Source of the DNA: Bacteroidota bacterium
GTDB lineage: Bacteria > Bacteroidota > Bacteroidia > 2-12-FULL-35-15
NCBI GenBank assembly: GCA_003151815.1
Contig: PLYN01000045.1
Location: 126,511 to 190,510, forward strand
Direction of reading: 5' to 3'
Length of the DNA: 64,000 nt
Shown: piece by piece, positions 41,669 through 64,000 of the stretch
How positions within the stretch are numbered: position 1 is the first letter of the stretch
Layout of the letters: each line of letters opens with the position of its first letter
Notes under the pieces: generated by a model
Database searches by the model: none
Seen by the model: the letters and a program-made list of their open reading frames with translations, nothing else
Told to the model about the DNA's origin: nothing
Program-made: the position numbers and the translations under genes

Positions 41669-44600
41669 TTATCTCATAATAGTAACCGGACCAGTATATG
41701 CATCAGGAAACGCAGGATCATTTAAAATAATTATATAATAATAGGTTCCAACAGGCAAAGGTTTACCTTTAAAATTACCATCCCATTTTTCTGTGTATCC
41801 CGGAGACCTGAATACTAACTCACCCCATCTATTATAAATTTCCACATTATTATTAGGGTAAGAATCCAAGAAATCAACTATCCATGTATCATTTACTCCA
41901 TCACTATTTGGTGTAAATCCTCCAGGAGGTGCGAATTGAGGAAGTATTTTTACTAATACCGAATCAGTTGCTTTACAACTACCTAAGGTAACAATTACTG
42001 TATAAACGGTTGTACTTGTTGGCTTCGTAACCGGATTGGCATAAGTGTTATCAATAAATCCTGCCGAAGGATTCCAAATATAATGTGAACCTGCAATACC
42101 TGTTGGGCTGCCACCAAGTGTAATGCTTGCACCGGAAATAATGCTAATGTCAGCTCCCGCATTTGCAGTAGCTTTAGGTTCTACCGAAATGTTGTAGCTG
42201 GAAACGGAACCAACACAGCCATTTAAGGTAGATGTAACAGTTATAAGTCCCGATAGGGTGGATGCTGTATTATTTGTACCGGTAAAACCGGGAACATTTC
42301 CTACTCCATTTGCAGCTAATCCAATTGCCGGATTGGAATTTGTCCAGGTATAAGTTGGAATATTAACAAAAGATGTTGTTACAACTGCATCACCATCGCA
42401 AACATCTGTATTGGCAGGAACTGTAAAGCTTGGAAACATTGTTATTATAACGATACTCGAATCTTTGATCAAAGTACCTGAACAATCATAAGTGTTGTAA
42501 ACCATATATGTTCCTTGAGCACTTGCTGTAAGATCAATTAATCCGGTGAAAGGATCTGAAAAAACCAAACCTGCCGATGACGTAAAAACTCCAGGGAAGG
42601 ATCCTGCAGGGAATGTAGGAGAAGCGTTGGGTGTTGAACTTTGACAATATGGTCCGGCATAGCTAAAGGATGCAGTTGGACTTGGTAAATTGGTAATATT
42701 AACAACAAAAGTACCGGTATTAGGACAAGTACCGCCAACATTAGTATAACTTATGGTATACGTACCAACGTTACTTATGCTTAAATTTATTTGACCTGTT
42801 GAAACAGATACAAAAACGATGCCTGCCGGAGAAGCACTAAATACCCCACCTGAAACACCTGTTATAGTCGGCGTTGGATTTAATATTGCTCCTTGACAAA
42901 AAGATGAGTATGAATAATTAAATGAGGCATCTTCTGCAGGATTAATTGTAACAGTATTAGTGGAAGGAGTAGCACCATTACAACCAAGCGTATTGGTTAT
43001 AGTATAGATTCCTACTGTGGATACTGAAAGATCAATTAATCCGGTAAATTTATTTGCAAATACCAAACCTGCTGGGGCAGAAAAAACTCCGGCACTCGCT
43101 CCAAGTGCTGGAATAAAAGTTGGACTTGGATCAGCAACATTCTTGCAATAAGGACCGGCATAACTAAAACCAGTGCCTGGAGGACTGGAGTTTGTTATAG
43201 TAACACCAAAAGTACTCGAAGTAGGACAAGCACCGTTAGTGGTATATGTTATAGCATAAGGTGAGCCTATATTTAAAGTACTTGCTAATAAATTTATTTG
43301 ACCTGTTACTGCATTAAAAACGATTCCTGATGTAGCAGAACTAAATGTTCCACCTGCTAATCCTGCAATTGTTGGACTTGGATCTATACCTGATTGGCAG
43401 AAAGTAGAGGATGAATAATTAAATGAGGCATCGTCCACAGCGTTAATGGTAACAGTATTAGTGAACGTGAAAACTCCGCCTGCCGCACATTTTGGAATAG
43501 TATTAGTTACAGTATAGGTTCCGGCCGCACTTGCTGTAAGATCAATTAAACCGGTGAATTTATTTGCAAACACCAAACCTCCCGTGGGTTCTGTAAAAAC
43601 ACCGGCACTCGATCCAACAACCGTGAAAGTCGGAGTTGGATTAGGAGTACTATTTTTGCAATATGCAGCAATTGGATAACTAAAATTAGGTACCGGAGGA
43701 TTAGAAACAGTAACACCAAAAATGGTTGAGTCGGGACAAGTACCATTCGTAACGTATTTTACTGAATATACTTTTAGAGCGCTTGCGCTCAAATTAATTT
43801 CACCTGTTGAAGTAGATACAAAAACAAGACCTACTGGAGACGAGCTAAACGTTCCACCTGCTTTGGCGATAAATGTTGGAGTAGGATTAATACCAGTTTT
43901 GCAAAAAGTAGAAGATAAATAATTAAATGTAGCATCGTCTATTGGGTTTATTGTTACTGAACTGAATTTCACAAAAGGTGCGCCTCCTATAGAACATGGT
44001 GGAATAGTATTGGTAACAGTATAGGTTCCAGGAGAACTTGCGGTTAAATCAATTTCACCGGTAAATTTATTAGCAAAAACTAAACCCGGGGTAGTCGTAA
44101 AAACGCCGGCACTTGATCCCCCAACAAAACCTGGAAATGGATTGGCGCTGTTTTGACAAAACGGATCCGAATAAATGAAATTCGCCTTGGGTGAATTTGT
44201 AATAGTAAGCCCAAAAGTGCTTGAATCCGGACAAGTACCGCTAGTAACATATTTCACAGTATAAACTGTGGCAGTACTTGCACTCAAATTAATTTCACCT
44301 GTCGAAGTAGATATAAAAACAAGACCTGCCGGGGTAGCGCTAAATATTCCGCCTGCTGTGGCTATGAATGTTGGAATTGTTGGATTAGGATCTGTTTTAC
44401 AAAAAGTAGAAGATGAATAATTAAATGAAGGATCGTCAAAAGGGTCTACGGTAACAGTTGCTGTAATTGCTGTCCCCGCACATCCATTCGCAGAAGGAGT
44501 AATGGTGTAAACTGCATTGCCTGATGTTAGCCCTGTTAATGTTAAGACTTGATCAATAAAACTTGAATTAATGGTATCAAAAGCCCCACTTACACCATTT

Positions 44601-47600: not shown

Positions 47601-48718
47601 TTTTGTATTGGTATAGAATCCATCTCCGCTCCCGGAGGATGTGGATTGTTAATAGAACCTATTGTATCATACCCGCTTAGGAAAGGCAAATGTGGCGTTG
47701 CCGCCCAGTCATAATAGGTTCCTATCATGTCCGACGTAAGTTTTACCAAAGTGGTACTATGACCGGAACATATTGTTTGGCTCATCGGACTGTTTGTTAT
47801 TATAGGTGTTTGAGTCACGTCCACCTCAAAATCCACCTGATTGCCGGCACAACCATTAGCAGTAGGAATAATGCTATAAATAACAGAGCCTCCACCCAAT
47901 CCATTACCATGAGCTGCATCGGAATATAACATTTGTACAATGCTAACATTATCAAACCCTAATCCCGGAAGCGCTCCGGATGTATTTGCCTGAGCAGTGT
48001 CCCATGTAAATTTTGTACCTGAAAATGTAGATGTTAAATCAATGGCACTAGGATTTCCGGAACATATTGTTTGAGAGTTGGTTCCACCACTGTTTGTGTT
48101 AACTGTTGGTTTCGGATTCACTAAAATAGTCGCTGTAATAGGGCTGCCTGTACAAGCACCATCCTTCGGGGTAATGGTATAAGTTACAGATCCAACGGAG
48201 TTGCTTGGAAAGCAATTCAAAGTCTGGATAATATCCCCGGGAGCAGCAATGCTACCTGAATTGGCACCATTTAGTTTTATTGCAGCTGTTACCCATGTAA
48301 AAGAAGTGGTGCTTCCTAAATTACTTGATAACGTAATTACAGCATTAGAAGGCAATCCGGAACAAATGGTTTGAGCCGATGGCGTTGCTGTTGCTACGGG
48401 ACCAACTGTAACTGTTGCAGTGGCAACTGTGAATGGAGCATTGGTGTCAGTTACTGTATAGGTAGTAGTAACGCTGGGACTAGCAACCGTAATAGGATTT
48501 ACAGTTTCACCTGTTGACCAAGTATAACTGCCGGAACCGCCACTTGCTGTGAGAATAGGATTAGCATCTCCTTTACAAATAGTTACGGAATTAACTGTAA
48601 CCTGAGCATGAACTTGTTGTGAAGCTATAGAAAAAAACAATAAAAATATTAGCTGTAGTAAACCTTTCCAGCCGAATGTTTGAGATTTTAAAATTTTTAT
48701 TGTAAGACTTTTTTTCAA
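41669..48718 (-). CDS. Giant SprB-like cell-surface adhesin (about 25 Ig/PKD-like tandem modules) with a T9SS type B (CHU_C) C-terminal sorting domain
   Basis: Signal peptide. Repeated modules of about 75-90 aa with TICSG...YTxTP..GC motifs; a central set of about 160-aa repeats (CPDSSTFG...GVFT...LVFANKFTGxIDLTAS). C-terminus FTPNSDGVNDTWIVDFL...YNRWGELVFRS...WDGNFKGKPLPVGTYYYII matches type B. Confidence 0.75.
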   Translation of the reverse strand: MKKSLTIKILKSQTFGWKGLLQLIFLLFFSIASQQVHAQVTVNSVTICKGDANPILTASGGSGSYTWSTGETVNPITVASPSVTTTYTVTDTNAPFTVATATVTVGPVATATPSAQTICSGLPSNAVITLSSNLGSTTSFTWVTAAIKLNGANSGSIAAPGDIIQTLNCFPSNSVGSVTYTITPKDGACTGSPITATILVNPKPTVNTNSGGTNSQTICSGNPSAIDLTSTFSGTKFTWDTAQANTSGALPGLGFDNVSIVQMLYSDAAHGNGLGGGSVIYSIIPTANGCAGNQVDFEVDVTQTPIITNSPMSQTICSGHSTTLVKLTSDMIGTYYDWAATPHLPFLSGYDTIGSINNPHPPGAEMDSIPIQNISNSSNVQKVVTYSITVNGCPGPITEYKVYINPAPHLTGSSEQKVCSGSSTTLVNLTSDAPPATTTFKWSTFVVYPLSGGFLSGRNPTFDNGPTTTIPTQTLTTTSIASDTVVYLITISNSANACKGSAEYWTIVKPLPDVISTPHTSDTICSDSTSFIELSSSLIANTTFAWTVNPSGLLGASNSPFPLVGNNDSIKQTLINNAFVADSAVYSITGTSDGCTGPIYTDTVRVEPTPDVTTLNTATICSDSTTSIVLTSHVAGTTYNWTVVPDPSLTGDFSPGNKDTIIRTLHNPTPAPLTAIYTITPTANGCLGIPYNITLTVNPTPSVTAIPAAQTICSDSTTLIVLTGGVAGTTYSWTVAVSPLVTGALLGSNDSIQQTLTNTDITAGFAIYTITPLANGCPGSPITVTITINPTPVITSTITTQTICSDSTTLVPLQSAVAGTTFAWTVDASGLALGAFPNNNDTIQQQLSNATTTQQTAVYTVTPTASGCPGAPFTVTITVNPTPDASALPSTICSGEVSNVIFSTHVVGTVFNWTVIDSTGVGGALPGSSLTAITQTLTAKGIVAGTATYSVTPTINGCPGIPITVIVTVKPLPNATATNALSTICSGTNTNITLNNDLGAGTTYAWTVSQVGASNTGPSSGTTNPIIETLTATGPVNGTATYTIIPTTNLCDGAPFLDTITVTPIPDIIATPAASTICSGGTTSIALTSLAGSSFTWTVDQVGVSGAISSAGSNITQTLTTTGIAAGTATYSITPSLNGCVGPSFLVVVSVNPLSVTTPASPTICSGTSPNVLLTSTIPGTTFDWTIVQTNVVGARDSVNIPNNGDISQILTATTTSAGSAVYTVTPSASGCSGLPVDVTITVNPLPDVIVSNITSTICSGIAANVVLTSNVAGTLFDWTVVPTGVSGASAVIDTIGPIAQILTSTLTVAGTAVYTITPKMNGCLGTDVTSTVTVNPVSTATPAGQTICTGTAPNIILSSPVLGTTFNWTVVQNGVSGAFDTINSSFIDQVLTLTGLTSGNAVYTITPSANGCAGTAITATVTVDPFDDPSFNYSSSTFCKTDPNPTIPTFIATAGGIFSATPAGLVFISTSTGEINLSASTATVYTVKYVTSGTCPDSSTFGLTITNSPKANFIYSDPFCQNSANPFPGFVGGSSAGVFTTTPGLVFANKFTGEIDLTASSPGTYTVTNTIPPCSIGGAPFVKFSSVTINPIDDATFNYLSSTFCKTGINPTPTFIAKAGGTFSSSPVGLVFVSTSTGEINLSASALKVYSVKYVTNGTCPDSTIFGVTVSNPPVPNFSYPIAAYCKNSTPNPTPTFTVVGSSAGVFTEPTGGLVFANKFTGLIDLTASAAGTYTVTNTIPKCAAGGVFTFTNTVTINAVDDASFNYSSSTFCQSGIDPSPTIAGLAGGTFSSATSGIVFNAVTGQINLLASTLNIGSPYAITYTTNGACPTSSTFGVTITNSSPPGTGFSYAGPYCKNVADPSPTFIPALGASAGVFSAPAGLVFANKFTGLIDLSVSTVGIYTITNTLGCNGATPSTNTVTINPAEDASFNYSYSSFCQGAILNPTPTITGVSGGVFSASPAGIVFVSVSTGQINLSISNVGTYTISYTNVGGTCPNTGTFVVNITNLPSPTASFSYAGPYCQSSTPNASPTFPAGSFPGVFTSSAGLVFSDPFTGLIDLTASAQGTYMVYNTYDCSGTLIKDSSIVIITMFPSFTVPANTDVCDGDAVVTTSFVNIPTYTWTNSNPAIGLAANGVGNVPGFTGTNNTASTLSGLITVTSTLNGCVGSVSSYNISVEPKATANAGADISIISGASITLGGSPTGIAGSHYIWNPSAGFIDNTYANPVTKPTSTTVYTVIVTLGSCKATDSVLVKILPQFAPPGGFTPNSDGVNDTWIVDFLDSYPNNNVEIYNRWGELVFRSPGYTEKWDGNFKGKPLPVGTYYYIIILNDPAFPDAYTGPVTIMR

Positions 48719-49099: not shown

Positions 49100-50545
49100 A
49101 TGAAAAAACTAAAAACAAAAATGTTGGTGCTTGCTTTTTCAGCATTCTTTGCACCATTATCAAAGGGGCAACAAACAAGAAAGGTAGATGATTTTAATGG
49201 AATTAAGATAACTGATTCGTTTACAATCATTATTTCGCAAAGCGATGTAAATACTGTTACAATTAATGCTGACACAACTTTACTACCAAAAATAAAAACT
49301 GAAATCACTGAAGGTATTTTAAACATAAGAACTGAAGACAACATCAAAAATGAACACCCCATCATAATCAACATTGCAATAAAATCATTGAATAGTTTGA
49401 ATGTTTCAGGCTCAACAGATATAAAAACCGCCAATCAATTAAATTGCAGTAAACTATTTATAGAATCCGGTAGTGCCGGTAATGTGAGTTTGGATGTGAA
49501 AGCAGATGAAATAAAAACACAAATTAACGGTATAGGTGATGTTGCTTTAACCGGCAGTGCAGAAATACTGGATGCAAATGTATCGGGTGCGGGTGATTTA
49601 AGAGCTTCTAACCTGGAAGTTGATAAAGCAAAAGTGAACGTATCGGGAACGGGAAATGCAAAGATAAATGTTAAACAAACTTTAGATGCTGATATAACAG
49701 GGACCGGCTCAATAATTTACAAAGGTAAACCTGTTGTGCGGAACATAACCATTACCGGAACCGGCTCTGTTCGTGAAAGCAAAAGCGGAAACGGCGAAGA
49801 AACTACCAATGATACCACTAAATTAAAATTTGGCAAAAAAAAATACAGTATCATTCACGATGGAAATGATTTAATCAATCGAAATAAAAAATTGTTTTTC
49901 AAGGAATATAACAGAACGTTTAAAAACTGGACGGGAATTGAATTCGGCATCAATGGCTTGCTCGATAATAAAAACAGTTTGGATGTTCCTCCATCAGCTG
50001 AGTTTTTAAAATTGAATTATTCAAGATCTTTTCAATTCGGAATCAATCTTTTGGAAAAAGATTTTCACATCTTCCAAAATTATTTAAACATTGTAACGGG
50101 CTTTGGTTTCGATTTTAATCATTATGCACTTCAAAAAGATGTTACATTATCAACCAACACCGATTTTTTATCCGCACAAGTGGATAGCTCTTTTTATTAT
50201 AAAAAAAATAAATTAAATGTAAGTTATATCAAAGCACCCTTATTATTGGAATTGAACACAAGCAAAAATTCAAAAAACAACTTGCATATTGCTATAGGCT
50301 TTGAATTTGCCTGGAGAATACATGCAGTCCAAAAACAGAAAAAGGAATTGGGCGATAAATTATATAAAATAAAAATACGGGACGATTTTAATCTACAACC
50401 TTTCCGTTATAGTGCTGTTGCACGTTTGGGCTTCAAGAACATTACACTATTTGCAAATTATGGAATCAACCGGTTATTCCTAAAAAATCAAGGACCTCAG
50501 GTATATCCATTTACTATTGGTTTAGCGATTAATTTTAATAAATAA
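49100..50545 (+). CDS. DUF2807 (GIN, autotransporter-adhesin-head-like) domain protein fused to a C-terminal beta-barrel-like domain
   Basis: Signal peptide. Repetitive beta-helix-like segments (NVSGSTDIK...NVSGAGDL...NVSGTGNAKINV) and a Tyr/Phe-rich C-terminal half. Confidence 0.55.
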   Translation: MKKLKTKMLVLAFSAFFAPLSKGQQTRKVDDFNGIKITDSFTIIISQSDVNTVTINADTTLLPKIKTEITEGILNIRTEDNIKNEHPIIINIAIKSLNSLNVSGSTDIKTANQLNCSKLFIESGSAGNVSLDVKADEIKTQINGIGDVALTGSAEILDANVSGAGDLRASNLEVDKAKVNVSGTGNAKINVKQTLDADITGTGSIIYKGKPVVRNITITGTGSVRESKSGNGEETTNDTTKLKFGKKKYSIIHDGNDLINRNKKLFFKEYNRTFKNWTGIEFGINGLLDNKNSLDVPPSAEFLKLNYSRSFQFGINLLEKDFHIFQNYLNIVTGFGFDFNHYALQKDVTLSTNTDFLSAQVDSSFYYKKNKLNVSYIKAPLLLELNTSKNSKNNLHIAIGFEFAWRIHAVQKQKKELGDKLYKIKIRDDFNLQPFRYSAVARLGFKNITLFANYGINRLFLKNQGPQVYPFTIGLAINFNK

Positions 50546-50588: not shown

Positions 50589-50626
50589 AAAAAAAGCATC
50601 CCGCAGTATTTGCAGGATGCTTTTTA
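50589..50626. terminator. Bidirectional rho-independent terminator between convergent genes
   Basis: aaaaaagcatcccgcag-tattt-gcaggatgcttttt (about 10-bp stem with 1 mismatch; A-run upstream, T-run downstream). Confidence 0.65.
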
Positions 50627-50652
50627 AACTTTAAACTTTCAAACTTTGAACT
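50626..50652. repeat. AAAGTT-family repeat (AACTTT orientation)
   Basis: aaactttaaactttcaaactttgaact. Confidence 0.5.
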
Positions 50653-50678
50653 ATCTTCCCTTTTTAAACTGCCTTGCC

Positions 50679-53600
50679 TTAATTCACGATCAGCCTCTTG
50701 CAGTATATTTTTTGGTTAGAAGTAGCAGTGATCATATACACTCCCTTACTTAATTTTTGAAGTAGGTCAATAGCATAAACAGCGTTTCCTTTTTGCTCAG
50801 TAACAACTATTTTAGAGTATAATTCCTGACCTAAAACATCATACACCACAATCACAACTTCCTGACCTTTTTCGGCAGTGATGATAGAATTAAGTGCTGT
50901 ACCATCACTTGGATTGGGTGAAATGTTAAACGAGAAGTCCGCGTTTCCTTTAATCTCCACTACAGCAATATTCGAATATTTAAACTCCCCATTAAAATCG
51001 GTTTGTTTCAAGCGGTAATAATAAACACCCGGAGTCACATTATCGTCATTTAAATAATAAGAAAGATCCGATGTGCTATTTCCGCCTTTTGCTTTAGAAG
51101 GAACGATAACACCTACAGCAAAAAAGTGGATCCCATCTAACGAACGTTCAACAGTAAAATAATCGTTGTTGATCTCCGATGCTGTTTGCCAGGTAGCATC
51201 AACCGTACTACCATTGTATGTAGCATTAAAATAAAGCAATTCAATAGGCAATGGATTCGTATTTGTAGTATCACCGAACGTAAAAGGACTGAATTCGGTA
51301 ACCAATGTATTGGAGGTAATGGAACCGGAAGAACTTCCTCCACAGCTTCCTGTAGTAGTAACCCTCGGATTATTATCTTCCCATGAACCCATAGTGCCGC
51401 CTGCATTAGTAGCGTTAGAAGGATCCCAATGCGCAATTTTCAAGGTGTTGCAATTTGATATTCCGCTCCAGCCGGCATCTTGCCACCATAACGTTAACTT
51501 TCCTCCATGAACTGTATTAACAGGACTTACTCTGAAAAAGTCCCAACGTTCTACAGCACTTACTTTTTTAAGTACCGGCGAAGGCGTTGCAGCCATATAT
51601 GCCGGGGTAACTTTTGCAGCCGAGGTATTATAATATTCCGCCTGAAAATCACAAATAGTATCCAGATTTTTTATACCTATTCTTGCCCATTTTGTTCCTT
51701 TTCCGGTAGGAAAAACATATGGACCTACCCCGTGTAATCCATTCCACCTCATCGGTCCGCTAACAAAACTACCAACATTACCGCTATCTGAACTTGCGGT
51801 ACTGGTAAGGGTTAGCAGGTTAGATGTACTCGAAATTATAATGCCATTCGTCAGCTTAAGCGTATTAGTAATAGTAGCCGGCTGAGTAAGCGTATCATTA
51901 TTACTACCGGAGCCTCCTGTTTTGTTCATCGTAACACTATAAAAAAAGTTTTCTGCAATACCACCTATGGATGTGTTTGTAGTGCCCTGAAACGTTGTTG
52001 TTCCGGAAGCAGGCGTAAATGCTCCATTGTTTAACCAATTACCACATACATTTAAACCATAGGTAGTCAAATATTCAAGGGAAGCGCCTGTTGAAATCGT
52101 CAAATCTCTACAAACCGCACCCGCAGCCCCAATTTGTGGGAATTGAGCACCTGGAGGAGTAGTAGGAATAAACGCGTCAGCAGTACAAGAAGGGATGCCA
52201 CACCAGTTACCGACAGTAAACCAACTTCGATCGGGATTAGCAAGCCCTGTCCAGTAACCACTTGGGTTGATAGTTGCCGTTACTATTTGAGGAGACATTC
52301 CACCATCTGTTCCAACACAACCTGTTGCCGTAACAGTAGGTATTACAGAATAGGTTACGGTAGTTATAGCACCTGTATTAATTGTTATTGTATTATTAAT
52401 GGTAGCACCGCTTTGTGTCGTTAAACTTTCACCAGTTGTGCTGGCATTGTCTGCCGCAATCCATGCATACGTTGAAGCCGCTGCCGGGGTACTTGCTAAT
52501 GGAATGTTCAGAGCCGTTCCGCTACACGCATATCCTACTGTAGTTGTTACTGCCGGACGAGGATTCGGATTTAATGCTAAAGTACGTGCTGTTCCATCGC
52601 CGCATGAATTATATTCGATTACCTGAACGTTTCCTGCTACAGCTCCTGCTGTTACCGTTATCGAATTGGAATTGCCACCTCCTGTAATTGTCCAATCGGA
52701 GGGTACCGACCATTGGTAACTCACTGCAGTTCTGTTTTGTGTAGTATATACCTGTGTTGTACCTTGACAAGGAGTAGTATTGGGAGCTATATTTGCAAGA
52801 ACAGTAACAGCAAGTATTGATGCTGTACTTGTTGAACAGCCACTGCTGGCAGTTACGGTTATGTTTCCATTTGAACCGGCGACACCCGCAGGTACCGATA
52901 TTGAAGTGGTTCCTTGGCCTGTTATTGCACCCCAACCTGCAGGCACCGTCCAAGTATACGTTGTAGCGTTAGTTACCGGGGCAATGCTGTAAGGCTCAAC
53001 AAACCCTGCGTATGTGGTAACAATACCTGAAATGGCGCCCGGTGCAGCAGGAGCAGCGGGGTTTACAACAATTGTTGCGGTGATAGCAGGACCGGCACAG
53101 AAAGTACCTGTAGGTCCTGTTGGTATGATGGTAAAGGTTACCGTTATAGCTGAGGATGTTGAATTGGTTAATACCACTCCTGTAATATCTCCGGTACCAC
53201 TGGCAGCAATACCTGTTACGCCCACTGTGTTATCCCTCGTCCATGCATAAGTAGTACCTGCAACGCCATTACTTGTGCTTAAAGCCATTGTTGCAAATCC
53301 TCCGGTAGAACATATTGTTTGACCACTATTAGTAACTGTTGCCAGAGGTATTACATTTACAGTTGCTGTTATGGTATTCGAATTTACAGCAGCTACCGAT
53401 GCGCAAGCCGGAACATCCACATCAGGAGTCATCACTACACTTACTTTATCGTTATTGGCGAGTGTTGAAGTGGTATAATTGGAATATATTTCACCGGCAA
53501 TATTTACTCCGGCCTTTTGCCATTGATAGGATGGAGTAGTACCGGCATTGGTAGGCGTAGGAGTAAATACCACACTGGTTCCGGCACATATAGCTCCCGA

Positions 53601-56600
53601 CGGTGATGCCGCAATTGTAACAGATGGATTTAAAGGCGTAATAGAGAATGTTCCAATTGCAGGCGATGTAGTAGGCGGACAAGGAGCGGATGTTACTGTT
53701 CGTTGATACCAGGTATTGGCTCCTAAGGCCCCCGGTGAATAATCCGGTGTTGTGGCGATAGTTCCACCCCAACCTGCGGTACTACTTGTAGTAGATGATA
53801 CCCATGCATATGTATAGGCTCCATTACCGCCTGCAGGAAGGCCACCTGCCAATGGCGAAGGTGTTGCTCCTGAGCAAATACTTTGTGTTGCACTGATGAT
53901 ATTATTAGTTATGGCGGTATTTACTGTTATTGCAATTACGGCAGAAGTATCTGTTGCACAAACGCCGGATGTTATATATCTTCTATACCAGGTTGTTACC
54001 GTTGGTATATTGCCACCCGTAAGACTACGGGTGGTGAGGGATTGTATTCCACCAAATAGAACAAAACCGGCAGTACTACTTGTTGTTGACCATTGCCAAT
54101 GAGCAGAAGGGGATCCATTACCTCCCCCGGGTGTAGTACCTGTTAAACCGGCAGGTGTAGAACCTGTACAAATAACCTGTGCAGTGCTTATTACGTTGTT
54201 ATTAATAGGACTGTTAACGCTCATGGTTATGGTATTGGATGTTGACTGCCATGGAGTAGCACAACCCAAGCTGGTAGTCATTAAAACGGTAATAGCATCA
54301 TTATTTGAAAGCGTAGTAGCAGCATACGTATAACTATTCGTTCCAACCAAGGCTCCACCATTTTTCCATTGATAAACAGGAGTTCCGCCGCCACTTGGTG
54401 TTGCAGTAAATGTTACACCTGTACCGTTACAAATAGCAGTTGCAGTTGCAGCAATGCTTACACTTGGCGATACACTGGTACCAATAGTTAAACTAAATGT
54501 TGCTGTTGATGCAACACCTGTACATGTTCCTGTTGCAGTTAAGGTATAAACAGTTAATGCCTGACCGGTGGTGGGGGTTCCGCTGATGGTATAAACACCA
54601 TTGGAGTATGAACCTGTAATGCCCGTAGGTAATGCAGGACTCACTGAAGCGCCTGTTCCGCTGCCGGTGAGTGTATAAGTAACAGGTACAATGGTGTTGC
54701 CGGAACATAAATTTTGATTGTTAGTACCGGGTACTGATGTTAAACTGATTACAGCATAGGGAGTAATGTGCATAAAGATAGGCGTAGAAATATACGAACA
54801 ATTATTGGTAGCATTATTAGATATCATATTTACAGCGATAGCATCTCCTTCTGCAAGTGTTGCATCACTATATGTTGTAGAATTTGTTCCAACATTCACA
54901 CCATTTTTTGTCCATTGATAAGTTGGTGTAGTTCCGCCGTGAAAAGGGGTGGCTGTAAATGTTACATTGGTTCCTGCACAAATGCTATTGGAAGTACTTG
55001 CCGCAATAGTAACATAGGCAACCGTAACCGAAAATGTAAAGGCAGTACCTGCACCACTACAATTAACCGGTGTCACAGTAATATTACCGGATGTGGTACT
55101 TGGATTTACATAAATCGAGCTGGTAGAGTCACCCGAAATTTGAACCCATCCTGTAGGAAATGTCCAACGATAATGATCCGCCGTAGCAGGATTTATATTA
55201 TAATTTTGCGAATAGCCGGCGCATGGATATTGAATACCTGCCGTGTTAACAGTTAATAAAGCCAATCCATTGCTATATACAAAAGGTGTACAAGTACCGG
55301 AAACTTTGCAACGGTAATAATTACCATTCTTGGTTGAAGCAGGAGTGACAATTGTTAATGTTGCCGTTGTTCCATTCGTATAAGTTGCGTTAACAGGAAC
55401 GGCTGCAAAAGTGGCTCCTCCATCGGTGCTTTCCTCCCATTGATAGCTAAGACCTGCACCTGTTGCAGTAACTGTAAAAATACCATTTGGTGTTGCCGGT
55501 GTTGCTGTTGGATCTACCAAATATGAGACCGGTTGACCGGTAATAGCAGGCAATGCATTTACCATAACTGCCACGGCACTGCTGGTAACAGAAGTACAAG
55601 GTGCTGTTCCTGTTACAACCGCATCATAATTTCCTGCAGCAGCAACAGCAGGATTTGTGATGGTTAAGGTAGCTCCGGTAACACCACTATAAGTGGCATT
55701 ATTAGCGATATTTGAACCTGCTAGCCTCCATTGATATGTTAAGCCCGTGCCGGTTGCGGTCACACTAATAGTACCTGATCCTGAACCGGCACAAAATGCA
55801 GCGGGAGCGACCGGCTGAACAGTTATTGTAGGTAAAGCGTTTACTGTTTCAGCAACACCACTTATTGTAGAACCGCATGGACTTGTTGCCGTTATTGAAT
55901 AATTCCCTGCCATTGCTGTTGTAACACTTGCATTTACTACTCCGGGACTTAATGAAGTAGAAGTAAAACCGTTGGGACCTGTCCAGCTATAGCTGGTTGC
56001 ATTGGTTGCAGCGCCGGTCATTGATAAACTACTTCCCGAACATATTGGATTGGTATTAGGAGTTGCTGATACAGCAGAAGGAACGGCTGATACAGTAACT
56101 GTCGCGCTTTGTCCGGAACTACAACCTCCTGCTGTAACAGAATAGGTAATTGTACATGATCCTGCTGCAACACCGGTCACCACGCCTCCGGCACTTACCG
56201 TTGCCACTGCAGTATTACTGCTTGCCCAAACTCCTGCTGCATCCGGATATCGAACAATCACAATACCTGAACCACCGGCACCGGCAAGTGTACCATCACC
56301 AATTCCGGTACCACCACCACCACCACCTGTATTTGCTGTTCCATTATTACCTGCACCTGTAGATCCGGCACCACCACCACCATTACCAGCAGCACCAACC
56401 GACCCTGACGCACAAACAACACCACCGCCACCGCCACCGGCATAATATACAGATGAACCGGAAATAGCATAAGCCAATCCTGCTCCACCTGCTCCACCTG
56501 CTCCGGTAGCTCCAGTTGTTCCCGCTTTATCTGCACCACCACCACCACCAGCACCTGTATTACAACCAATTGTTGGATTTTGTCCTGATCCACCTGAATT

Positions 56601-58586
56601 TCCCTGACCGGCAGTATTCGTACCAGCAACTGATAAACCAGCAGTAAACTCCCCAGCAGCTCCACCACCGGAACCTCCGGCACCAGCTGTATTTGAACCA
56701 TTAGGATTATTATAACTTCCCCCACGACCACCGCCATTTGCCGTAATCAATGCTCCAAATGTTGTATTTGAGCCCACAAAGCCTGCATTAGCATTAGCAC
56801 CGGCTGCGCCACCGGTACCAATAGTTATTGCATAAGTAGTATTAGCTGCAACTGCTTGACTTGCATTATGAACCAAACCACCGGCACCTCCTCCACCACC
56901 GCCATTTCCACCACCACCACCACCACCGGCAACTGCTAATACCTCTATATTGCCGCTAAAACCTGCCGGGGTTATAAAATTTCCATTTCCTGTAAAAGTA
57001 TGCGTACGATATCCACCTGAAGTAGTACCACCTGCAGGAGGAGTACTTGCCAATGTTGTTGTACTACCAATACATACAGAGGTGGTACCTGTAATAGAAG
57101 CGGGAGTGGGCGGTAAAGTAGATGACACTTCTAATATACGAGTAGGAGTAGTACAAGCACCAACAACTGCGTAAACACTGACATTTCCATTTTGACCTGC
57201 AGTACCTACGGTTGATACTGTCATTGAATTGGTTGCTCCACCAGCCTGCGTCCATCCTGTAGGAACTGTCCAAGTATAAGTAGGACCTCCGGCAACTGCA
57301 GTAATACTATATGCTTGAGTCACTGCACCGGGACATTGCTGAACAGTTCCGGTTATAGCACTCAGTGTGGCAGGCGCTGTAGTTATGGTTACCGTTACGT
57401 CAAACCTTGTTGTACTTTCACAACCACTAACCGTTTGGGTTGCATAATAATGAGTTGCAGTAACCAAAGCGGTGCTAGTTGCTAATGCTGTACCTCCACT
57501 TGATGCGGCATACCATTGTATTGCTGTTCCTGTTGCTGTTAAGCTTGCTACGGTTGGACTCGAACTACTACAAAAGCTTTGAGAAGCACTACCTGTGGGT
57601 GCTGCCGGTGGACTGACTACTGTCCAGGTAATTACTACATAGCCATCTTTACCATTGACAGAAGTACAAGTACTGTTAATCGTTCCACCAGTAGCATTAC
57701 CAGCAGCACCTCCAGCATTACCGGGTACTGTACCAGCACCATTTGTTATTGTATTAGCTGTTCCTGCATTCGTTGAGCTGGATCCACCAGCACCACCACC
57801 ACCGCCAGTACCATTATTGACACCACCATTACCACCAAGGGCACCACCACCACCTCCTCCACCACCACCATTAGTACCGGAAGCTCCCCCATTTGCTCCT
57901 ATACCTGTACCTGTATTTCCTGAACCACCAGCGCCCCCACTATTACTACCATTAACACCACCACCACCACCAGCGCCACCAACGCTACTAACACTACCAC
58001 CACCACCACCACCACCACCAGCTATAGCAAGTGTTGTACTTGTGGTTGAATTTAAAACATAAGAAGCGCCACCACCACCCCCACCTGCGCCAGCTTGAGA
58101 AGCAGTTGCTGCTCCTCCGCCCCCTCCTGCATGGGTTGCGTTTCCATATCCGGAGCCGCCAGCACCAACACAAGCACCACCGCAGCAACCATTCCCACCA
58201 TGTCCACCAACAACAACTGTTAAAACATCAGCAGGGCTTACTGCATAAGTAGCTGTTGCATAAGCTCCACCACCACCGCTACCACCTGCTTTACTATTAC
58301 TTCCACCATCACCACCCGCACCACCACCGGCACCCCAACATTTAACAACTATTGAAGTAACACCACAAGGAACAGTAAATGATTGAGTACCGCCTGTATA
58401 AGAAAAATTAGTAGTTTGTGCAAATAATTTATTGGGTAGGATTGCCGCAAGAAGAACCACAATGCAAAAAAGGAAGGATGAAATTATTTTTTTACCCGTA
58501 TTCGAACGCAACAAAGAAGCACCAGAGGCCTTCTCCTTCTTGCTTTTTGAAACATCTAAAAACTTATTTGGGTAAGATTTTATCAT
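50679..58586 (-). CDS. Giant (2635 aa) secreted multi-domain protein: two glycine-rich (PF12810/ALK-GRD-like) domains, many Ig-like/PKD-like modules, T9SS type A (Por_Secre_tail) C-terminal sorting domain
   Basis: Gly-rich domains at about aa 61-325 (DNA about 57610-58410) and aa 524-785 (about 56230-57020), starting with F-x-Y/H-T-G...F-x-V/T-P...GV and ending [12 protein letters not shown]-terminus ...[59 protein letters not shown] matches type A. The start codon is uncertain (long leader before the hydrophobic core). Confidence 0.7.
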
Positions 58587-59096
58587 TTTAAAAATCAGTT
58601 TCTGCTAAAAAGTTTTAAATTAATAGTATTATCTCAAGCAATTCTACGCAAATTCTCCTATCAAGGTTTCAAATTTTAAACATTCGAAGGTTGATAAATA
58701 GATGTTCGAATTAGAATTATCGTATAAACTTAACAAGCAAAAATAAGCCAAAAATGCTTGGTTTCTCTAATTTTTATCAACAAAATTCATTGATCTGTTA
58801 TCATTTCTTAAGGATTCATCAGGATTAACGAAAATGAACAGGATTGGGTTGCATTTGTTGATAAGTTAGAGATTAAAAAAATACAGATTGCAGATTGGAA
58901 AATTGAAGGTTGTATGGATAAGACAAATGACACGAATTTCACGAATTAAAACTCAAATGTACGGATAAAGACGTTGAAGGAGTTTTTTATGGATTATCGT
59001 TTGTATTTAATACTTGCATTTCGACTGGTAAAGAATGTTTTTGACTAAAGACATTGAATACATGTAAATGTTCCTTACATTTGCATAACAAATTAG

Positions 59097-59354
59097 ATGG
59101 AACTTCGAACAATGGAAACGATTAGAAACCTTATTACAATCGATAGTGAAATACTTGGTGGGCAGCCTGTTTTTAAGGGTACCCGAGTACCTATCGAGAC
59201 TTTATTCTTACATTTAGAGAAAGGCATTTCACTAAATGAGTTTTTAGAGGACTTTCCCACCGTAACCCAAGATCAAGCTGTTGCAATTCTTGAAGTTGCA
59301 GAAAAAGTTTTAACTTCTAAAAACTTTGCTAAGTTATATGAAACTGCTGCTTGA
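59097..59354 (+). CDS. DUF433-family protein (putative antitoxin of a DUF433/DUF5615 pair)
   Basis: ILGGQPVFKGTRVPIETLF motif typical of DUF433; stop overlaps the downstream gene start. Confidence 0.75.
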   Translation: MELRTMETIRNLITIDSEILGGQPVFKGTRVPIETLFLHLEKGISLNEFLEDFPTVTQDQAVAILEVAEKVLTSKNFAKLYETAA

Positions 59355-59658
59355 CGAAAATCTACCCAAAAGGCTCAAAATAGATCTTTCAGAACATGAT
59401 ACTTACACCGTCAGAGATAAGGGTTGGAACGGAAAGAAAAACGGGGAACTTTTAAAGCTGATGCTAGAGGATAGTTTTGAGGTTTTAATTACTTTTGACA
59501 AAAATCTTCAATATCAGCAAAATTTTAGCAAATATTCGCTTCCCGTATTGGTTCTAAATGCGACTGACAATTCATATCTTACACTTCGTTTACTTGTTCC
59601 GCAAATTAAGATTATTTTGTCAAAACCCCTAAATGTAGGATCAATAGAAGTGAAATAA
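59326..59658 (+). CDS. DUF5615-family PIN-like (Mut7-C-type) putative toxin
   Basis: MKLLLDENLP N-terminus (ATG at 59338, or TTG at 59326); overlaps the DUF433 gene by 17-29 nt. Confidence 0.7.
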   Translation: MLSYMKLLLDENLPKRLKIDLSEHDTYTVRDKGWNGKKNGELLKLMLEDSFEVLITFDKNLQYQQNFSKYSLPVLVLNATDNSYLTLRLLVPQIKIILSKPLNVGSIEVK

Positions 59659-59726
59659 AGTTTTAGACTTTTTTGTCGTAAACGAATTCCCGACAAAATT
59701 AAATTTTTTTTTGGATGTAGGAAAGT

Positions 59727-59987
59727 TTATAAATAATGCCCCTTGAGAGAATAAACATAAATTGTTTGATTTTCAATTGAATAGACCAGCCTGTTTTCTC
59801 TATCAATTCTCCTTGACCATTTACCTGTAAGCTGATGTTTAAGAGGTTCTGGCTTACCAATGCCATCGAAAGGGTTTTCAACAATAGCTCTTGTAAGCAT
59901 TGCAATACGTTTGAGGATAATTTTATTTCCAGTCTTTTTCCAATAAACTAAATGTTCATGAGCCTTTGGGAGTATAACTACTTCCAT
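59727..59987 (-). CDS. yoeB: Txe/YoeB-family type II toxin (mRNA interferase)
   Basis: Strong similarity to YoeB: LVYWKK..., FDGIGKPEPLKHQLTGKWSRRIDRENRLVYSI..., ends ...SLKGHY. Confidence 0.85.
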   Translation of the reverse strand: MEVVILPKAHEHLVYWKKTGNKIILKRIAMLTRAIVENPFDGIGKPEPLKHQLTGKWSRRIDRENRLVYSIENQTIYVYSLKGHYL

Positions 59988-60241
59988 AAATCATCCAATT
60001 CTTTGAGGGTAATTTTTTTTCCTTTCCCATTTTTTAAGTCTTTATCACCCTGTTGAATCATCGCAACAAATTCAGGATTATAAGGAGACTTATTTTTAGG
60101 AACTTCGAATTTTATTTTTAATGCCTTCATAAAAGCCTTTAAAGCTTCGAATTTATCATCACTACCCGGATGAACAATTATTATGTCAGATGTTTTCATT
60201 TGTAGATAATTTGTTTTTTCACAATACAAAGGTAATGTCAT
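59978..60241 (-). CDS. Putative YefM/Phd-like antitoxin partnered with the YoeB-like toxin
   Basis: Overlaps the yoeB start by 10 nt; the C-terminal region (YNPEFVAMIQQGDKDLKNGKGKKITLKEL) resembles the YefM C-terminus. The true start is probably the internal Met (MKTSDIII). Confidence 0.5.
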   Translation of the reverse strand: MTLPLYCEKTNYLQMKTSDIIIVHPGSDDKFEALKAFMKALKIKFEVPKNKSPYNPEFVAMIQQGDKDLKNGKGKKITLKELDDLWK

Positions 60242-60313
60242 TATACTACAAATTGCAAATAAATTAAATGAATTCGGCTAAAGGGTGATAAATAATCTGA
60301 TAAGGACTTTCCA

Positions 60314-60484
60314 TCATAATTGTTTAGTGACTAGCAATTTCGCTGCTTTCACCACTTCTTCACGGCTTTTTCCTTTTACTTTCCCTGATTCAATGTCCTT
60401 TGCCCGACGCTGCATTTCCTTTACAAACACATTATTCCAAATTTCGTGTTTTTCTTTTATTTCTTCCTCCACTATTGTCCTCAA
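60314..60484 (-). CDS. Small unannotated ORF (56 aa, TTG start): Unstab_antitox/TIGR02574-like addiction-module antitoxin, apparently N-terminally truncated (possible pseudogene)
   Basis: Translation LRTIVEEEIKEKHEIWNNVFVKEMQRRAKDIESGKVKGKSREEVVKAAKLLVTKQL. The W..E..RR...I.SGKVKG...EEV pattern matches the family C-terminus. Below the 60-aa cut-off of the ORF track, and antisense to the spurious ORF 60285-60578. Confidence 0.35.
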   Translation of the reverse strand: MRTIVEEEIKEKHEIWNNVFVKEMQRRAKDIESGKVKGKSREEVVKAAKLLVTKQL

Positions 60485-60650
60485 ATTGTGTCAAGCTATT
60501 TCAGGGATAGACATAATTCAAAACCAGAGCGCCATTGCGAGGGAGGAGCGAAGGGAGTTAATACAAAAAACCAAATAACCATAATGGTATTTTATTTTTA
60601 AAGCCATATTCAATATCGTTAGATGCTATAAATGCAAGGGTTGAAAAAAA

Positions 60651-63600
60651 CTAATAGCTTTTCATTGAAGTAGGCGCGGCAGGGGCAGCCTGTAATGTTT
60701 GTGTGCCACCCGCAGTTGTTGGCCCACCGGATTGCGTACCGGCATATGTAAGATCGCCGGCTGTTATTGCATTACAAGTAATTGTATTACCACTTGTTGG
60801 TGAAGCAACAACATCTACTGTTATCCAAAAATAATAGGTTGTTCCTGATGTGAGTGTGGGAGTTGTAAAAGCGGCGAATGAACGAGTACCTGCACCACCA
60901 CCGGCAGTAAGCAAATCAGCACCTACTTGAGTAGCAGTACCGGGAAAAGTATTTGAAGCGCTATACCATAATTGATATTTAACAATGTCAGCCTGTGCAT
61001 AGCTTCCTGTGGTAGTAAATTGAACATTTGTTAAGTTTCCATTACCAACTGTAATTGCCCCACTGAAACTTTGAATAGGAACTTTTAGGGTGGATGGAAC
61101 TTTACAAGCTGCAGATATAGTGTTTGAAGCTAATGCAATTGCCGAACAAGCACCAACAGTAATAGGTGCTGTAACTGCAGTAGAGGTACAACCGGAAGCA
61201 CCGGGGTATGAATAACTTATTGTAGCTGAACTCCCTGCCGAAACACCTGTAATAGTTGTTGCAGAACTTGTTGCAGTAACAGTAGTAGTACCAACGGTTA
61301 CTTGTCCATTATTACTTGACCAGGTGCCACCTGTTGGATCGGGATAACGTATAATAACAATACCTAAACCTCCTGCTCCACCTGAATAACCTGCATCACC
61401 ACCACCACCACCACCACCAGTATTTGCTGTGCCGGCAACTCCAGTAGTATTAGTTCCGCCCGCTCCACCGCCACCCGAACCACCGGCTGCTGCAGAAAGA
61501 CCACTTCCGGCATTATAAACACAACCACCACCGCCACCGCCATAAGTAACAGAAGCTCCCGAGATCGAAAAAGCTTTACCGTTTCCCCCCGCTCCTGCAG
61601 TATTACCGCTTCCTGCAACTCCAACAGCACCGGCACCACCGCCACCCGAACCTCCCCAACCAAAACTACTTTCTGTTCCCCCGTCATTACCTTGACCTGC
61701 CGGACTTGCAGTTCCACCGATACCCAATGTTGTACCATCCGCCGGACTTCCACCACCTCCGCTACCTCCATTATCACCAGCCTGTCCGTAACAGGGTGAT
61801 CCACAAATCCTTGTGCCACCGCCACCGCCACCTGCAGCAGTTATTCCGTTGAAAACTGAAGCTTGGCCGTCGTTTCCATTTGTAGAATTATAAGCACCAC
61901 CATTGCCACCACTACCCACTGTAACTGCATATCCGGTAGAAGCAGCCACTGATGATGTAGTATATATTACACCTCCTGCACCACCACCACCACCAAAACC
62001 GCCACCACCACCGCCACCCGCAACAATTAATACCTCTACAGTTCCAGGGTTAAAACCTAAAGTTGTAAATGATTGTCCATCGGTAGTAAATTTATGTATT
62101 CGATACCCTCCCGAAGAAGTAATGGTACCACCGGTAGGAAGCCCTGCTGTAGTTAATACTGATGTAGCTGCACAATTAATAGAAGTTGTTCCTGTAATAG
62201 CATCTGGGGCTGGCAAAGTATAAACCGTCATTGTTCCTGTTGCATAGGTAATTGTATAATTACTTAGCCCTGACCCAACGGCAGCACTGGGAGTAATTGT
62301 GGAAGCTCCTGCTCCTGCTCCTGCTGCTGCACCGGCACACGCAAATGTTGCGCTGGTAACAGCATCTGTATTTTTGAGCCCGCTTGTGGCAAATTCAGTT
62401 CCGGCAAATGTATAAGTTGATCCCTGGCATTTAGGTATATTATAGGCGGTTATGGTTAATGGGGCGGTAACTGTAATTACTTTAGTCTGTGCAGGGCTGG
62501 CAGTACAAGGAAAACCGGCACCACCATATATATAGGAAATGGTGGTTGTTCCATATGCAACACCCGTAACAACTCCTGTAGATGCATTTACGGTTGCTAC
62601 CGCTGGCGCACTGCTTGACCAAGTACCTGCAGTTACATCTGCATAGCGAACTATTACTATTCCAGTACCTCCTGCACCACCAGCGCTACCACCTCCACCA
62701 CCACTACCTGTATTTGCTGTACCCACTCCTCCTGAAGGTCCACCCGCACCTCCAACTGCGCTACCTCCAGATCCATTATTTGCTGTTTTCCCTGCTGCCG
62801 GTGGATAACATGTAATACCACCGCCACCGCCACCCGCATAAAATGTTGCTGTTCCGGAAATACTACTTGATATTCCTGCCCCACCATTACCACCAGTCGC
62901 ACTTGTATTGGCAACAAATCCACCATTACCACCTACAGCACCTGCACCACCACCGCCGCCACCTGCTGAATAACATCCCTTATCACCAACTGTGGCAATA
63001 AACCAATTACCATTACCACCTGCACTTTTTGACGTACCAGAACCACCTGCAGCAACACCTGTAGAAAGTGCAGCAGTACTAGCACCACCACCACCACCAC
63101 CTGAACCACCTGAAAGAGCGTTTCCACCAGCATCTCTGGATGCACCACCACCACCACCGGTAGAGGTGATAACTGTTCCCGTTCCAAATACGGAACTCCC
63201 GCCAACAAATACCCCTGCACCGCCTGAATTAGTCCCTACAAGTCCACCATCACCAACAGTCACAGGGTAAGTAGTATTCGCGGCAATTAGATAATTTGTA
63301 TTAGTTGTATATGCACCCGCACCACCACCACCACCACCATTAGCGCCACCGCCACCACCACCACCAACAACCAAATACTCAAAATTGCTTGGTATGAAAC
63401 CAACAGGAGTAATGAATGATGTCGATCCAACAGTTGTAAATTTGTGGACTCTATAACCTGCTGCTGTACCGGGTGAACTACTAACTAAATCACCACCGGA
63501 AGGACCTGTTATAGTTAGGGCAATTGTAGAGCCAACCACAACAGCTGCTGGTCCACCAATTGACGGTGCTTGTTTGCATTGTGAAAAAGTTTTATTAGGC

Positions 63601-63803
63601 ATTAAACTGAAAAGGAAGATAATAGACAATAGCGAATAGCGAATAGATTTACGTTTAAAGTTTAAAGTTAGAAAATTTAAAGAATTGAGAAAATTTCGAA
63701 TAGAAAAAAAAGAACAAGGAATAACTCCCATGAACAGGCTTTTTACAACAATTATCAATTTATTTAAGTATTGTTTTATCATTTTACTATAGTTAATAGG
63801 CAA
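60651..63803 (-). CDS. Giant-protein paralog (1050 aa as drawn): two glycine-rich PF12810/ALK-GRD-like domains plus Big_2-like Ig domains; no recognisable T9SS C-terminal sorting domain
   Basis: Gly-rich domains at about aa 116-388 (DNA about 62640-63460) and aa 565-820 (about 61340-62110), with the same GYR(V/I)HKFT...GIVI(V/I)RY(A/P)D boundaries as the 50679-58586 gene. C-terminus ends ...APAAPTSMKSY. The true start is probably internal, because the annotated N-terminus translates the AAAGTT repeat. Confidence 0.65.
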   Translation of the reverse strand: MPINYSKMIKQYLNKLIIVVKSLFMGVIPCSFFSIRNFLNSLNFLTLNFKRKSIRYSLLSIIFLFSLMPNKTFSQCKQAPSIGGPAAVVVGSTIALTITGPSGGDLVSSSPGTAAGYRVHKFTTVGSTSFITPVGFIPSNFEYLVVGGGGGGGANGGGGGGAGAYTTNTNYLIAANTTYPVTVGDGGLVGTNSGGAGVFVGGSSVFGTGTVITSTGGGGGASRDAGGNALSGGSGGGGGGASTAALSTGVAAGGSGTSKSAGGNGNWFIATVGDKGCYSAGGGGGGAGAVGGNGGFVANTSATGGNGGAGISSSISGTATFYAGGGGGGITCYPPAAGKTANNGSGGSAVGGAGGPSGGVGTANTGSGGGGGSAGGAGGTGIVIVRYADVTAGTWSSSAPAVATVNASTGVVTGVAYGTTTISYIYGGAGFPCTASPAQTKVITVTAPLTITAYNIPKCQGSTYTFAGTEFATSGLKNTDAVTSATFACAGAAAGAGAGASTITPSAAVGSGLSNYTITYATGTMTVYTLPAPDAITGTTSINCAATSVLTTAGLPTGGTITSSGGYRIHKFTTDGQSFTTLGFNPGTVEVLIVAGGGGGGGFGGGGGAGGVIYTTSSVAASTGYAVTVGSGGNGGAYNSTNGNDGQASVFNGITAAGGGGGGTRICGSPCYGQAGDNGGSGGGGSPADGTTLGIGGTASPAGQGNDGGTESSFGWGGSGGGGAGAVGVAGSGNTAGAGGNGKAFSISGASVTYGGGGGGCVYNAGSGLSAAAGGSGGGGAGGTNTTGVAGTANTGGGGGGGDAGYSGGAGGLGIVIIRYPDPTGGTWSSNNGQVTVGTTTVTATSSATTITGVSAGSSATISYSYPGASGCTSTAVTAPITVGACSAIALASNTISAACKVPSTLKVPIQSFSGAITVGNGNLTNVQFTTTGSYAQADIVKYQLWYSASNTFPGTATQVGADLLTAGGGAGTRSFAAFTTPTLTSGTTYYFWITVDVVASPTSGNTITCNAITAGDLTYAGTQSGGPTTAGGTQTLQAAPAAPTSMKSY
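63653..63682. repeat. AAAGTT-family repeat at the 5' end of the giant-protein paralog
   Basis: gtttaaagtttaaagttagaaaatttaaag. A CAATAGCGAATAG short repeat also flanks it (63627-63649 and 63800-63820). Confidence 0.5.
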
Positions 63804-64000
63804 TAGCGAATAGTTATCAGGGAAATTTTCGCATTTAAAATTACAAATAATTTTTTCTAATCGATTTTACGGTAAAAAAGGATAAAGGTTTCAAAGTAAA
63901 GACAAAAGTTAAAAGTCAAAAACCAAGGGTGTGTATTAAGTTTAAAGTTTTGTTGCTAAGCTAATTTCTTTTCAATGAATATGGCAATAGCTTTTTCAAT

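Follow-up and report, generated by a model that had tools for sequence, protein, structure and literature searches.

The stretch of Bacteroidota DNA analysed here, 64,000 nucleotides (nt) long and hereafter called the window, in which positions are counted unless stated otherwise, carries two long genes, A and B, whose products each contain two glycine-rich domains (GRDs). We read them, with a probability of about 0.72, as encoding two Sec-exported modular proteins of a bacterium with a secretion system of type IX (T9SS), with the GRD pair in the N-terminal half of each, A serving as a surface head and B as a short form. Sequence beyond the window was read from the 277,883-bp metagenome contig scaffold_113 (ENA ERZ28653421, WOOD18-1_SAMN07125042; about 187-212 kb) as the pieces L004 1-12787 and L003 1-10000.

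Gene A (50679-58586, minus strand) is an open reading frame (ORF) of 2635 amino acids (aa) with an ATG start and the same gene call in the source contig. Its product runs from a signal peptide through an ALK-like GRD, an Ig_7 domain, a PF21722 GRD and Big_2 into a long Ig/PKD stalk and a type A C-terminal sorting domain, and its Pfam content comprises PKD_6 (four), PKD_5 (two), Gly_rich_2, Ig_7, Ig_3, Big_2 and Por_Secre_tail. The leader (58419-58586, like all parts of A on the minus strand) consists of a 30-aa N-terminal extension beginning MIKSYPNKF (58497-58586) and a putative Sec-type signal peptide with Q after the cleavage site and a hydrophobicity peak at aa 39-50. It is followed by the divergent ALK/LTK-like domain A1 (57618-58415, aa 58-323, 37.6% Gly), the CHU_C-associated Ig-like Ig_7 (57381-57608, aa 327-402; PF19081, E 6.5e-10) and the PF21722 domain A2 (56235-57020, aa 523-784, 35.9% Gly), which enters with GYRTHTF and exits with GIVIVRYPD. 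A partial Big_2 match stands directly after A2 (56130-56237, aa 784-819; PF02368, E 1.6e-5). The stalk (50925-56129) takes up about 1,700-1,730 aa of Ig-like, PKD_6 (four stretches), PKD_5 (two) and Ig_3 repeats and of β-rich sequence without a family, and the T9SS type A sorting domain (50685-50924, aa 2555-2634) closes the protein.

Gene B (60651-63803, minus strand) is a 1050-aa ORF when read from TTG. The database gene call (P0001, 100% identical) is 1043 aa long, starts at the ATG at nt 63782 and begins MIKQY; the start codon is uncertain between that ATG and the one at 63731. The order is signal peptide, GRD, spacer, GRD, Ig-like link, terminal β-sandwich module and stop, with no sorting domain. 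On the same strand, the leader (63582-63782) holds an extension beginning MIKQYLNKL, a heptamer-repeat stretch and a putative signal peptide (KRKSIRYSLLSIIFLFSLMPNKTFS, followed by QC after an inferred cleavage site); the PF21722 domains are B1 (62631-63464, aa 114-391, 34.9% Gly) and B2 (61332-62114, aa 564-824, 37.5% Gly), the latter being the one whose structure was modelled. The 167-aa C-terminal module (60654-61154) is complete and possibly BNR_assoc_N-like, and the protein stops 9 residues later.

Both proteins open with M-I-K-(S/Q)-Y-x-N-K-(F/L), and the surroundings of the start codon (AAAATGATAAAA) are also alike. An unusual extension of 30-50 aa precedes the signal-peptide core in each; a comparable one is found in a further GRD gene, D (MNTTYSKI...), described below. 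By inspection, both putative signal peptides have a positive n-region, a hydrophobic core and a cleavage site of the form ...FA or ...FS before Q. The original prediction described two giant tandem paralogs with two GRDs of about 260 aa each. The domain count and the ORFs were confirmed (four segments of 261-278 aa, 35-38% Gly), while the genes are not strictly in tandem, as 2.06 kb with two toxin-antitoxin pairs lies between them. Their paralogy extends to the GRDs and the N-terminal leader only, and the remaining architecture differs.

Three of the four domains are members of the Pfam family PF21722 (Gly_rich_2; gathering score 24.3 bits). A2 (66.9 bits, E 3.4e-18), B1 (47.8 bits, E 2.4e-12) and B2 (81.1 bits, E 2e-22) all exceed the cut-off in alignments that span profile positions 1-4 to 225 of 226, and they are 51-55% identical to one another at the amino-acid level. 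A1 is 35-40% identical to them and lies below the cut-off (13.5 bits, E 0.075; -8.7 bits against the family hidden Markov model built here). Sharp conserved boundaries, previously ascribed to all the GRDs, are present in A2, B1 and B2, which share the entry (S/A)GYRxHxFT...F(I/T)TP and the exit G(I)VI(V/I)RY(P/A)D, but not in A1, which has other start and end sequences. The domains had also been called PF12810-like. None of the four segments matched PF12810 by hmmscan at E<=10, where HMMER filters may hide very weak matches; A2, B1 and B2 belong to PF21722 instead, and only A1 leans towards PF12810. Among A1's 22 database homologs, precomputed annotation gives PF21722 in 11 and PF12810 in four. 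The top matches of the A1-type profile among PDB sequences are LTK (E 0.0064) and, weakly, ALK (E 0.08-0.18), both in register, and the PF21722-type profile finds the Pam3 tail fibre as its best match (E 1.7e-4), in register up to GIIIVQY. Aligned with each other by hhalign, the two profiles match across about 90 N-terminal columns (probability 98%, E 1.8e-13), which supports a remote homology of A1 to the other GRDs.

An AlphaFold2 model of B2, built from a 45-sequence alignment, reached a predicted local distance difference test score (pLDDT) of 95.5 and a predicted template modelling score of 0.92. Its strands lie at the entry (residues 2-34), at a few internal positions and at the exit (residues 255-261), and the glycine-rich remainder is confident yet without a DSSP class. 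Compared with solved structures, the B2 model scored best with the tail fibre gp24 of cyanophage Pam3 (16.3; 176 aa, 2.1 Å, 28% identity), followed by the Bxb1 'tail wing brush' gp33 (12.9), the Bxb1 tail spike gp29 (10.4) and four ALK GRD entries (7.1-7.3; ~120 aa). For the A1 GRD the human ALK GRD came first (13.4; 178 aa, 33% identity), then the Pam3 fibre (13.1), Bxb1 gp33 (12.5) and C. elegans ALK (12.5). The predicted GRD structure superposes, in its sandwich as well as its glycine-rich part, on the solved class that combines a tumour necrosis factor (TNF)-like fold with polyglycine II (ALK GRD, Pam3 gp24 and S16 gp38). As modelled, the GRD is a TNF-like β-sandwich of entry strands (YRxHxF, FTxP, VEVLVVAGG) and an exit strand (GIVIVRY), from which about 10-12 glycine-rich loops are predicted to project and pack together. 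The sharp boundaries mentioned above correspond to the two ends of a single sandwich, its N-terminal and its C-terminal strands.

Structure and profile comparisons together give A one ALK/LTK-leaning and one Pam3-leaning GRD, and B two Pam3-leaning ones. The proposal of an ALK-GRD-type glycine lattice was therefore right about the structural class and wrong about the closest kin, as the solved proteins most closely related to A2, B1 and B2 are tail fibres of phages (Pam3 gp24, Bxb1 gp33) and not ALK. Similarly, the same N-terminal architecture attributed to both proteins applies loosely, the ALK-like first GRD of A having no counterpart in B.

With 35-38% glycine, HMMER bias terms of about 125-130 bits and A1 under the Pfam cut-off, the glycine tracts could be taken for flexible low-complexity linkers and their profile matches for compositional artefacts. 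The B2 model, in which no segment has a pLDDT below 50, speaks against this, as do the 33 invariant and 40 near-invariant columns in the profile of 45 homologous domains, which include the non-glycine positions L32, S121, Y260, F12, Q144 and N234. Moreover, 300 shuffles of each domain scored -30 or worse, far under the real sequences. For B2 we regard the linker explanation as refuted, and for the domains at large it is improbable in the extreme. Because of the PF21722 matches, the shuffle scores and the confident B2 fold, the GRDs are not chance low complexity, and the structural check suggested at the outset came out in favour of a folded domain over merely disordered glycine linkers.

The best-described relative is Pam3 gp24, a 280-aa trimeric fibre with an N-terminal helical shaft that needs the chaperone gp25 (PMC9608196). 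From its TNF-like β-sandwich 12 glycine-rich motifs extend and stack in a four-layer lattice; the loop tips, which are less conserved, are the proposed site of host-receptor binding, and in structure the protein resembles S16 gp38 and the ALK of C. elegans (PMC9608196). The GRDs of A and B differ from gp24 (PDB 7YPX/7YFW) in that they sit twice in a single Sec-exported multidomain chain, in which no chaperone or trimerisation element was seen. They are of the same structural class as Bxb1 gp33 and gp29 (PDB 9D93) and the S16 gp38 adhesin (6F45), and it is A1 that leans towards the GRD of ALK/LTK (PF12810; PDB 7LRZ, 7NX3, 7LS0, 7LIR, 7NX0). Compared with the PF21722 proteins of bacteria, phages and giant viruses, A2, B1 and B2 are bona fide members and show no difference in kind.

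This proximity to phage proteins raises the question of whether B is a prophage-derived tail-fibre gene instead of a cellular one. Its nearest solved and predicted structures are phage tail fibres, and some of its homologs carry the phage fibre chaperone domain PF13884. In BFVD, 246 viral models match at E<=1e-3 (top TM 0.86), from tailed phages, cyanophages, a haloarchaeal phage and algal giant viruses; the matches are named 'Glycine-rich domain-containing protein', and relatives also occur on IMG/VR viral contigs. We nevertheless consider a prophage origin highly improbable: its putative Sec signal peptide would be cleaved just before a Gln, as is typical of Bacteroidota, it is without the N-terminal helix for baseplate attachment, and no phage structural genes were found within 35 kb, where the neighbours are toxin-antitoxin genes and adhesin paralogs.

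The sorting domain of A lies at the extreme C-terminus and passes two curated thresholds, with 28.1 bits for PF18962 (threshold 27) and 36.6 bits for TIGR04183 (threshold 23). In B no sorting domain (PF18962/TIGR04183 or CHU_C/PF13585) was detected in Pfam, either in the whole protein at E<=0.01 or in the last 167 aa at E<=10, or in NCBIfam. The statement that only the 2635-aa protein bears a T9SS signal is thus confirmed. The 2 kb downstream of B contain toxin-antitoxin genes only and no orphan ORF for a C-terminal sorting domain. The stop itself recurs at the same position, after ...PA(A/T)PT(SM/TL)KS(H/Y), in four copies, namely B, its paralog C and two gene relics described below. With a stop common to four copies, a complete final module and nothing but toxin-antitoxin genes downstream, the stop of B is genuine; we rejected a frameshift or truncation as the cause of the missing sorting domain, and with it the possibility that a frameshift-corrected B would gain an ordinary one. 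The short architecture of B and C is lineage-specific.

The terminal module of B gives further context. In a jackhmmer search its 167 aa align over their whole length with a tandem repeat that a Cloacimonetes protein has in five copies; the repeats total 50.7 bits for PF14873, while the B module itself has no Pfam match. A Pfam identity was therefore not assigned, the link to BNR_assoc_N being sub-threshold and transitive. In other organisms the module is internal: the Cloacimonetes protein with the five copies ends in Por_Secre_tail, and a Crocinitomicaceae metagenome-assembled genome (MAG; JBKCEW010000064.1, L001 983-13017) encodes an ORF of more than 4011 aa that runs off the contig end. 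The latter carries an A1-type GRD (GNGTWTCPAGVTSATVHCWGGGGGG...LIITYT), the B-type module internally and many Ig-like repeats after it, and comes closest to being a full-length relative for the C-terminal half of B and C.

The T9SS of the host is read from a PorP/SprF gene (40658-41620, 256 bits) adjoining a gene for a protein with 12 PKD_5 repeats and CHU_C, which makes it probable that the organism bears the system. The two genes (40658-48718, minus strand) are arranged in the classical manner of T9SS type B: the first encodes 2349 aa, in which CHU_C is the sorting domain besides the 12 PKD_5 repeats, and the gene for the outer-membrane protein PorP/SprF comes directly after it.

Upstream of B, the set of same-strand GRD genes continues, so that D, C, B, A and two 3' relics lie within 35 kb. 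C (P0002) is called as a 928-aa protein and is really a full-length B paralog, 72% identical to B in amino-acid sequence, that is frameshifted between the signal peptide and the first GRD. D encodes 2387 aa with a GRD, a BNR_assoc_N-like domain, fn3 and 13 PKD_5 repeats, and has no sorting domain. The gaps between the array genes are full of toxin-antitoxin and defence-type modules, about ten in 15 kb: RelE, PemK, ParE, two HepT/MNT pairs, two DUF2683/YoeB pairs, AbiEii/DUF6922 and DUF433/DUF5615. Inside this toxin-antitoxin island lie two relics of the last ~57 codons plus stop of a B/C-type gene (L003 ~1915-2098 and 3139-3311; merged 14107-14290 and 15331-15503). Both are 94-97% identical to the 3' end of C, and next to the first comes what is left of the region upstream of DUF2683. 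This layout implies several duplications, followed by partial deletion, of a unit made up of a B-type gene and DUF2683/YoeB. DNA homology is also found among the duplicated toxin-antitoxin units. Between B and C, DNA identity is a mosaic, with 91% in the 3' module, 70-84% in the second GRD and 32-45% in the spacer.

These remains lend some weight to an account in which B, together with C and D, is a decaying, non-functional remnant of a degenerating adhesin array, fragmented by duplications, deletions and inserted DNA with toxin-antitoxin genes, in which A is the only working T9SS cargo. The frameshift in C, the two relics and the absence of a sorting domain from D fit such decay, and so does the internal position of B's end module in the Crocinitomicaceae and Cloacimonetes homologs, one of which continues to Por_Secre_tail. 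B itself, however, is an intact 1043-codon ORF with a leader, a signal peptide and four complete domains, and its stop is conserved in four copies after a complete domain. B and C have diverged as a mosaic yet keep the ORF, and the single frameshift in C could be a metagenome assembly error. In addition, most family members outside Bacteroidota carry no T9SS domain. On balance decay is possible, at odds of roughly one to three, and B would be a GRD protein with another destination or else a copy in decay.

The opposite extreme, that D, C, B, A and the relics with their toxin-antitoxin gaps form a maintained diversification locus in which toxin-antitoxin pairs shield directly repeated, recombination-prone adhesin paralogs from deletion and B and C are functional, seems to us unlikely. 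Protection of cassettes from deletion by toxin-antitoxin pairs has been proposed for chromosomal integrons. If the locus were of this kind, B and C might reach the surface independently of the T9SS or act in trans, for instance by docking on A or on the glycine lattices of other cells.

The array also bears on the idea, raised in the original prediction, that B is a silent donor cassette recombining into the expressed T9SS gene by gene conversion or antigenic variation. In its favour, the locus groups several paralogs and relics that all point the same way, and the modules are mosaic; by eye, in translations, the Ig spacer of C resembles an Ig module of A, the spacer of B being unrelated. The DNA itself does not bear the idea out. 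The GRD-coding DNA of A and B is 49-61% identical globally, and the longest exact matches, 20-24 nt, are (CCA)n, that is (GGT)n codons; the best BLASTN patches (word size 7) are 30 nt at 97% and 58-78 nt at 78-81%. The similarity between 56.2-58.4 and 61.3-63.5 kb that was thought to permit gene conversion thus consists of (GGN)n tracts only, which takes away the premise of a donor cassette: A and B share no usable DNA homology, and the closest paralog of B is C, outside the window. We found no recombinase, invertase or flanking inverted repeats between A and B, only weak inverted repeats of 15-21 nt with 76-93% complementarity. Unlike silent cassettes, B comes with a leader, a signal peptide and a start context of its own. 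For the A-B pair a donor role is largely refuted by the want of DNA homology beyond codon-repeat tracts, and we hold it to be very unlikely.

A short tandem heptamer, AAACTTT / AAACTTTAAACTTT, occurs at 16 places in the window against 4.4 expected. Sites include 63650-63682, 63937-63950, 50626-50654, 31819-31839, 17649-17746 and 12227-12371; beyond the window, in L004, the motif is found at 176-228, 9512-9546 and 9637-9671. By coordinates the sites lie mostly between or at the ends of ORFs; one is just upstream of the D ATG, two are in the C 5' region and one is in the B leader. A role of the heptamer as a phase-variation switch for B, C and D, in whose 5' regions it occurs, was rejected, because it is enriched window-wide and imperfect in B and so not gene-specific; it looks like a genome-wide short repeat.

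We return to the reading of A and B as Sec-exported modular proteins with paired GRDs. In the proposed scheme, A would be exported by Sec, secreted through the T9SS and held at the cell surface via its C-terminal end, with its GRDs at the distal tip, separated from the anchor by an Ig/PKD stalk of about 1,700 residues, as ligand-binding heads. B, made up of two PF21722 GRDs, an Ig-like link and the terminal module, would reside in the periplasm or reach the outer membrane by another route. A ligand-binding head is the best guess for the GRDs because the domain binds a receptor or ligand in each characterised relative (Pam3 gp24, S16 gp38 and ALK/LTK); the ALK glycine-rich domain binds a cytokine. 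A stalk with GRDs at its tip would, by analogy, reproduce the geometry of a phage fibre. The giant T9SS adhesins SprB and RemA of Flavobacterium johnsoniae combine a Sec signal peptide with a long and repetitive stalk of Ig/PKD-like type and a sorting domain at the C-terminus. A shares the stalk and the sorting domain with them, and putatively the signal peptide, differing in that its sorting domain is of type A and not type B, and SprB and RemA are not known to carry GRDs.

Several points weigh against this reading. The signal peptides of A and B were assigned by eye. The role as adhesin head is probable for bacterial, non-phage GRDs by analogy with their characterised relatives, and those among phages form trimers with the help of chaperones; A and B show no sign of trimerisation. 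We infer the polyglycine-II-type lattice from the superposition and from residues of high pLDDT without a DSSP class. Finally, B is possibly non-functional, its nearest paralog being frameshifted and relics being present in the array.

Searches for further members place both proteins in a very large family. At E<=1e-3 the PF21722-type profile matches the representatives of 45,748 clusters (50% identity), and at E<=1e-30 it still matches 9,852, in proteins of up to 7,335 aa with up to 19 matched stretches, and most of the 120 top homologs of B have 2-4 complete domains. Bacteroidota members that pair PF21722 with Ig_7, Big_2, PKD_5/6 or Por_Secre_tail are also known (P0024, P0039, P0098 and P0125). 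Duplicated GRDs in a giant T9SS protein are accordingly a fresh instance of a catalogued kind, in which multi-copy giants are the norm. B and C have no close ortholog outside the contig; the next BLASTP match covers at most 25% of the query, and the best genome match for B is a Crocinitomicaceae MAG. In the literature searched on PF21722, PF12810, bacterial polyglycine-II domains and glycine-rich T9SS cargo we found no work on bacterial members, in agreement with their earlier description as essentially uncharacterised.

The base composition of the locus reflects the domains. In this low-GC genome (~33-35%), local GC rises to 0.43-0.49 over the GRD-coding stretches with a strongly negative GC skew, because GGN codons are read on the opposite strand. 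Long V/P/H-rich ORFs in other GRD frames (56258-56737, 61364-61831 and 62657-63220 on the minus strand; 61903-62223 and 62992-63270 on the plus strand) are spurious, arising from runs of (GGN)n codons, and might be mistaken for genes. Between A and B lie a plus-strand toxin-antitoxin pair (59097-59658) of a DUF433 antitoxin-like ORF (59097-59354) and a DUF5615 PIN-like ORF (59326-59658), both with precomputed Pfam matches, and a minus-strand pair (59727-60241) of DUF2683 (59978-60241) and a YoeB toxin (59727-59987), assigned by Pfam. A second copy and a relic of the DUF2683/YoeB pair lie upstream of the window, and the duplicates are 79.5% identical. On the other side of A, a divergent plus-strand gene (49100-50545) encodes a 481-aa protein with a DUF2807 'auto-transporter adhesin head GIN' domain and an OMP_b-brl_2 outer-membrane β-barrel, and a DUF6268-like gene is found at 39616-40584.

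The family is huge and already catalogued, so that the finding alters annotation and not concepts. It means that the GGGGGG tracts of giant Bacteroidota surface proteins are compact, confidently predicted domains and neither linkers nor junk, and that these domains are of the same class as those used in phage host recognition and in ligand binding by human ALK/LTK. As A carries ALK-like and Pam3-like sub-types side by side, it offers a convenient bacterial system for asking what GRDs bind.

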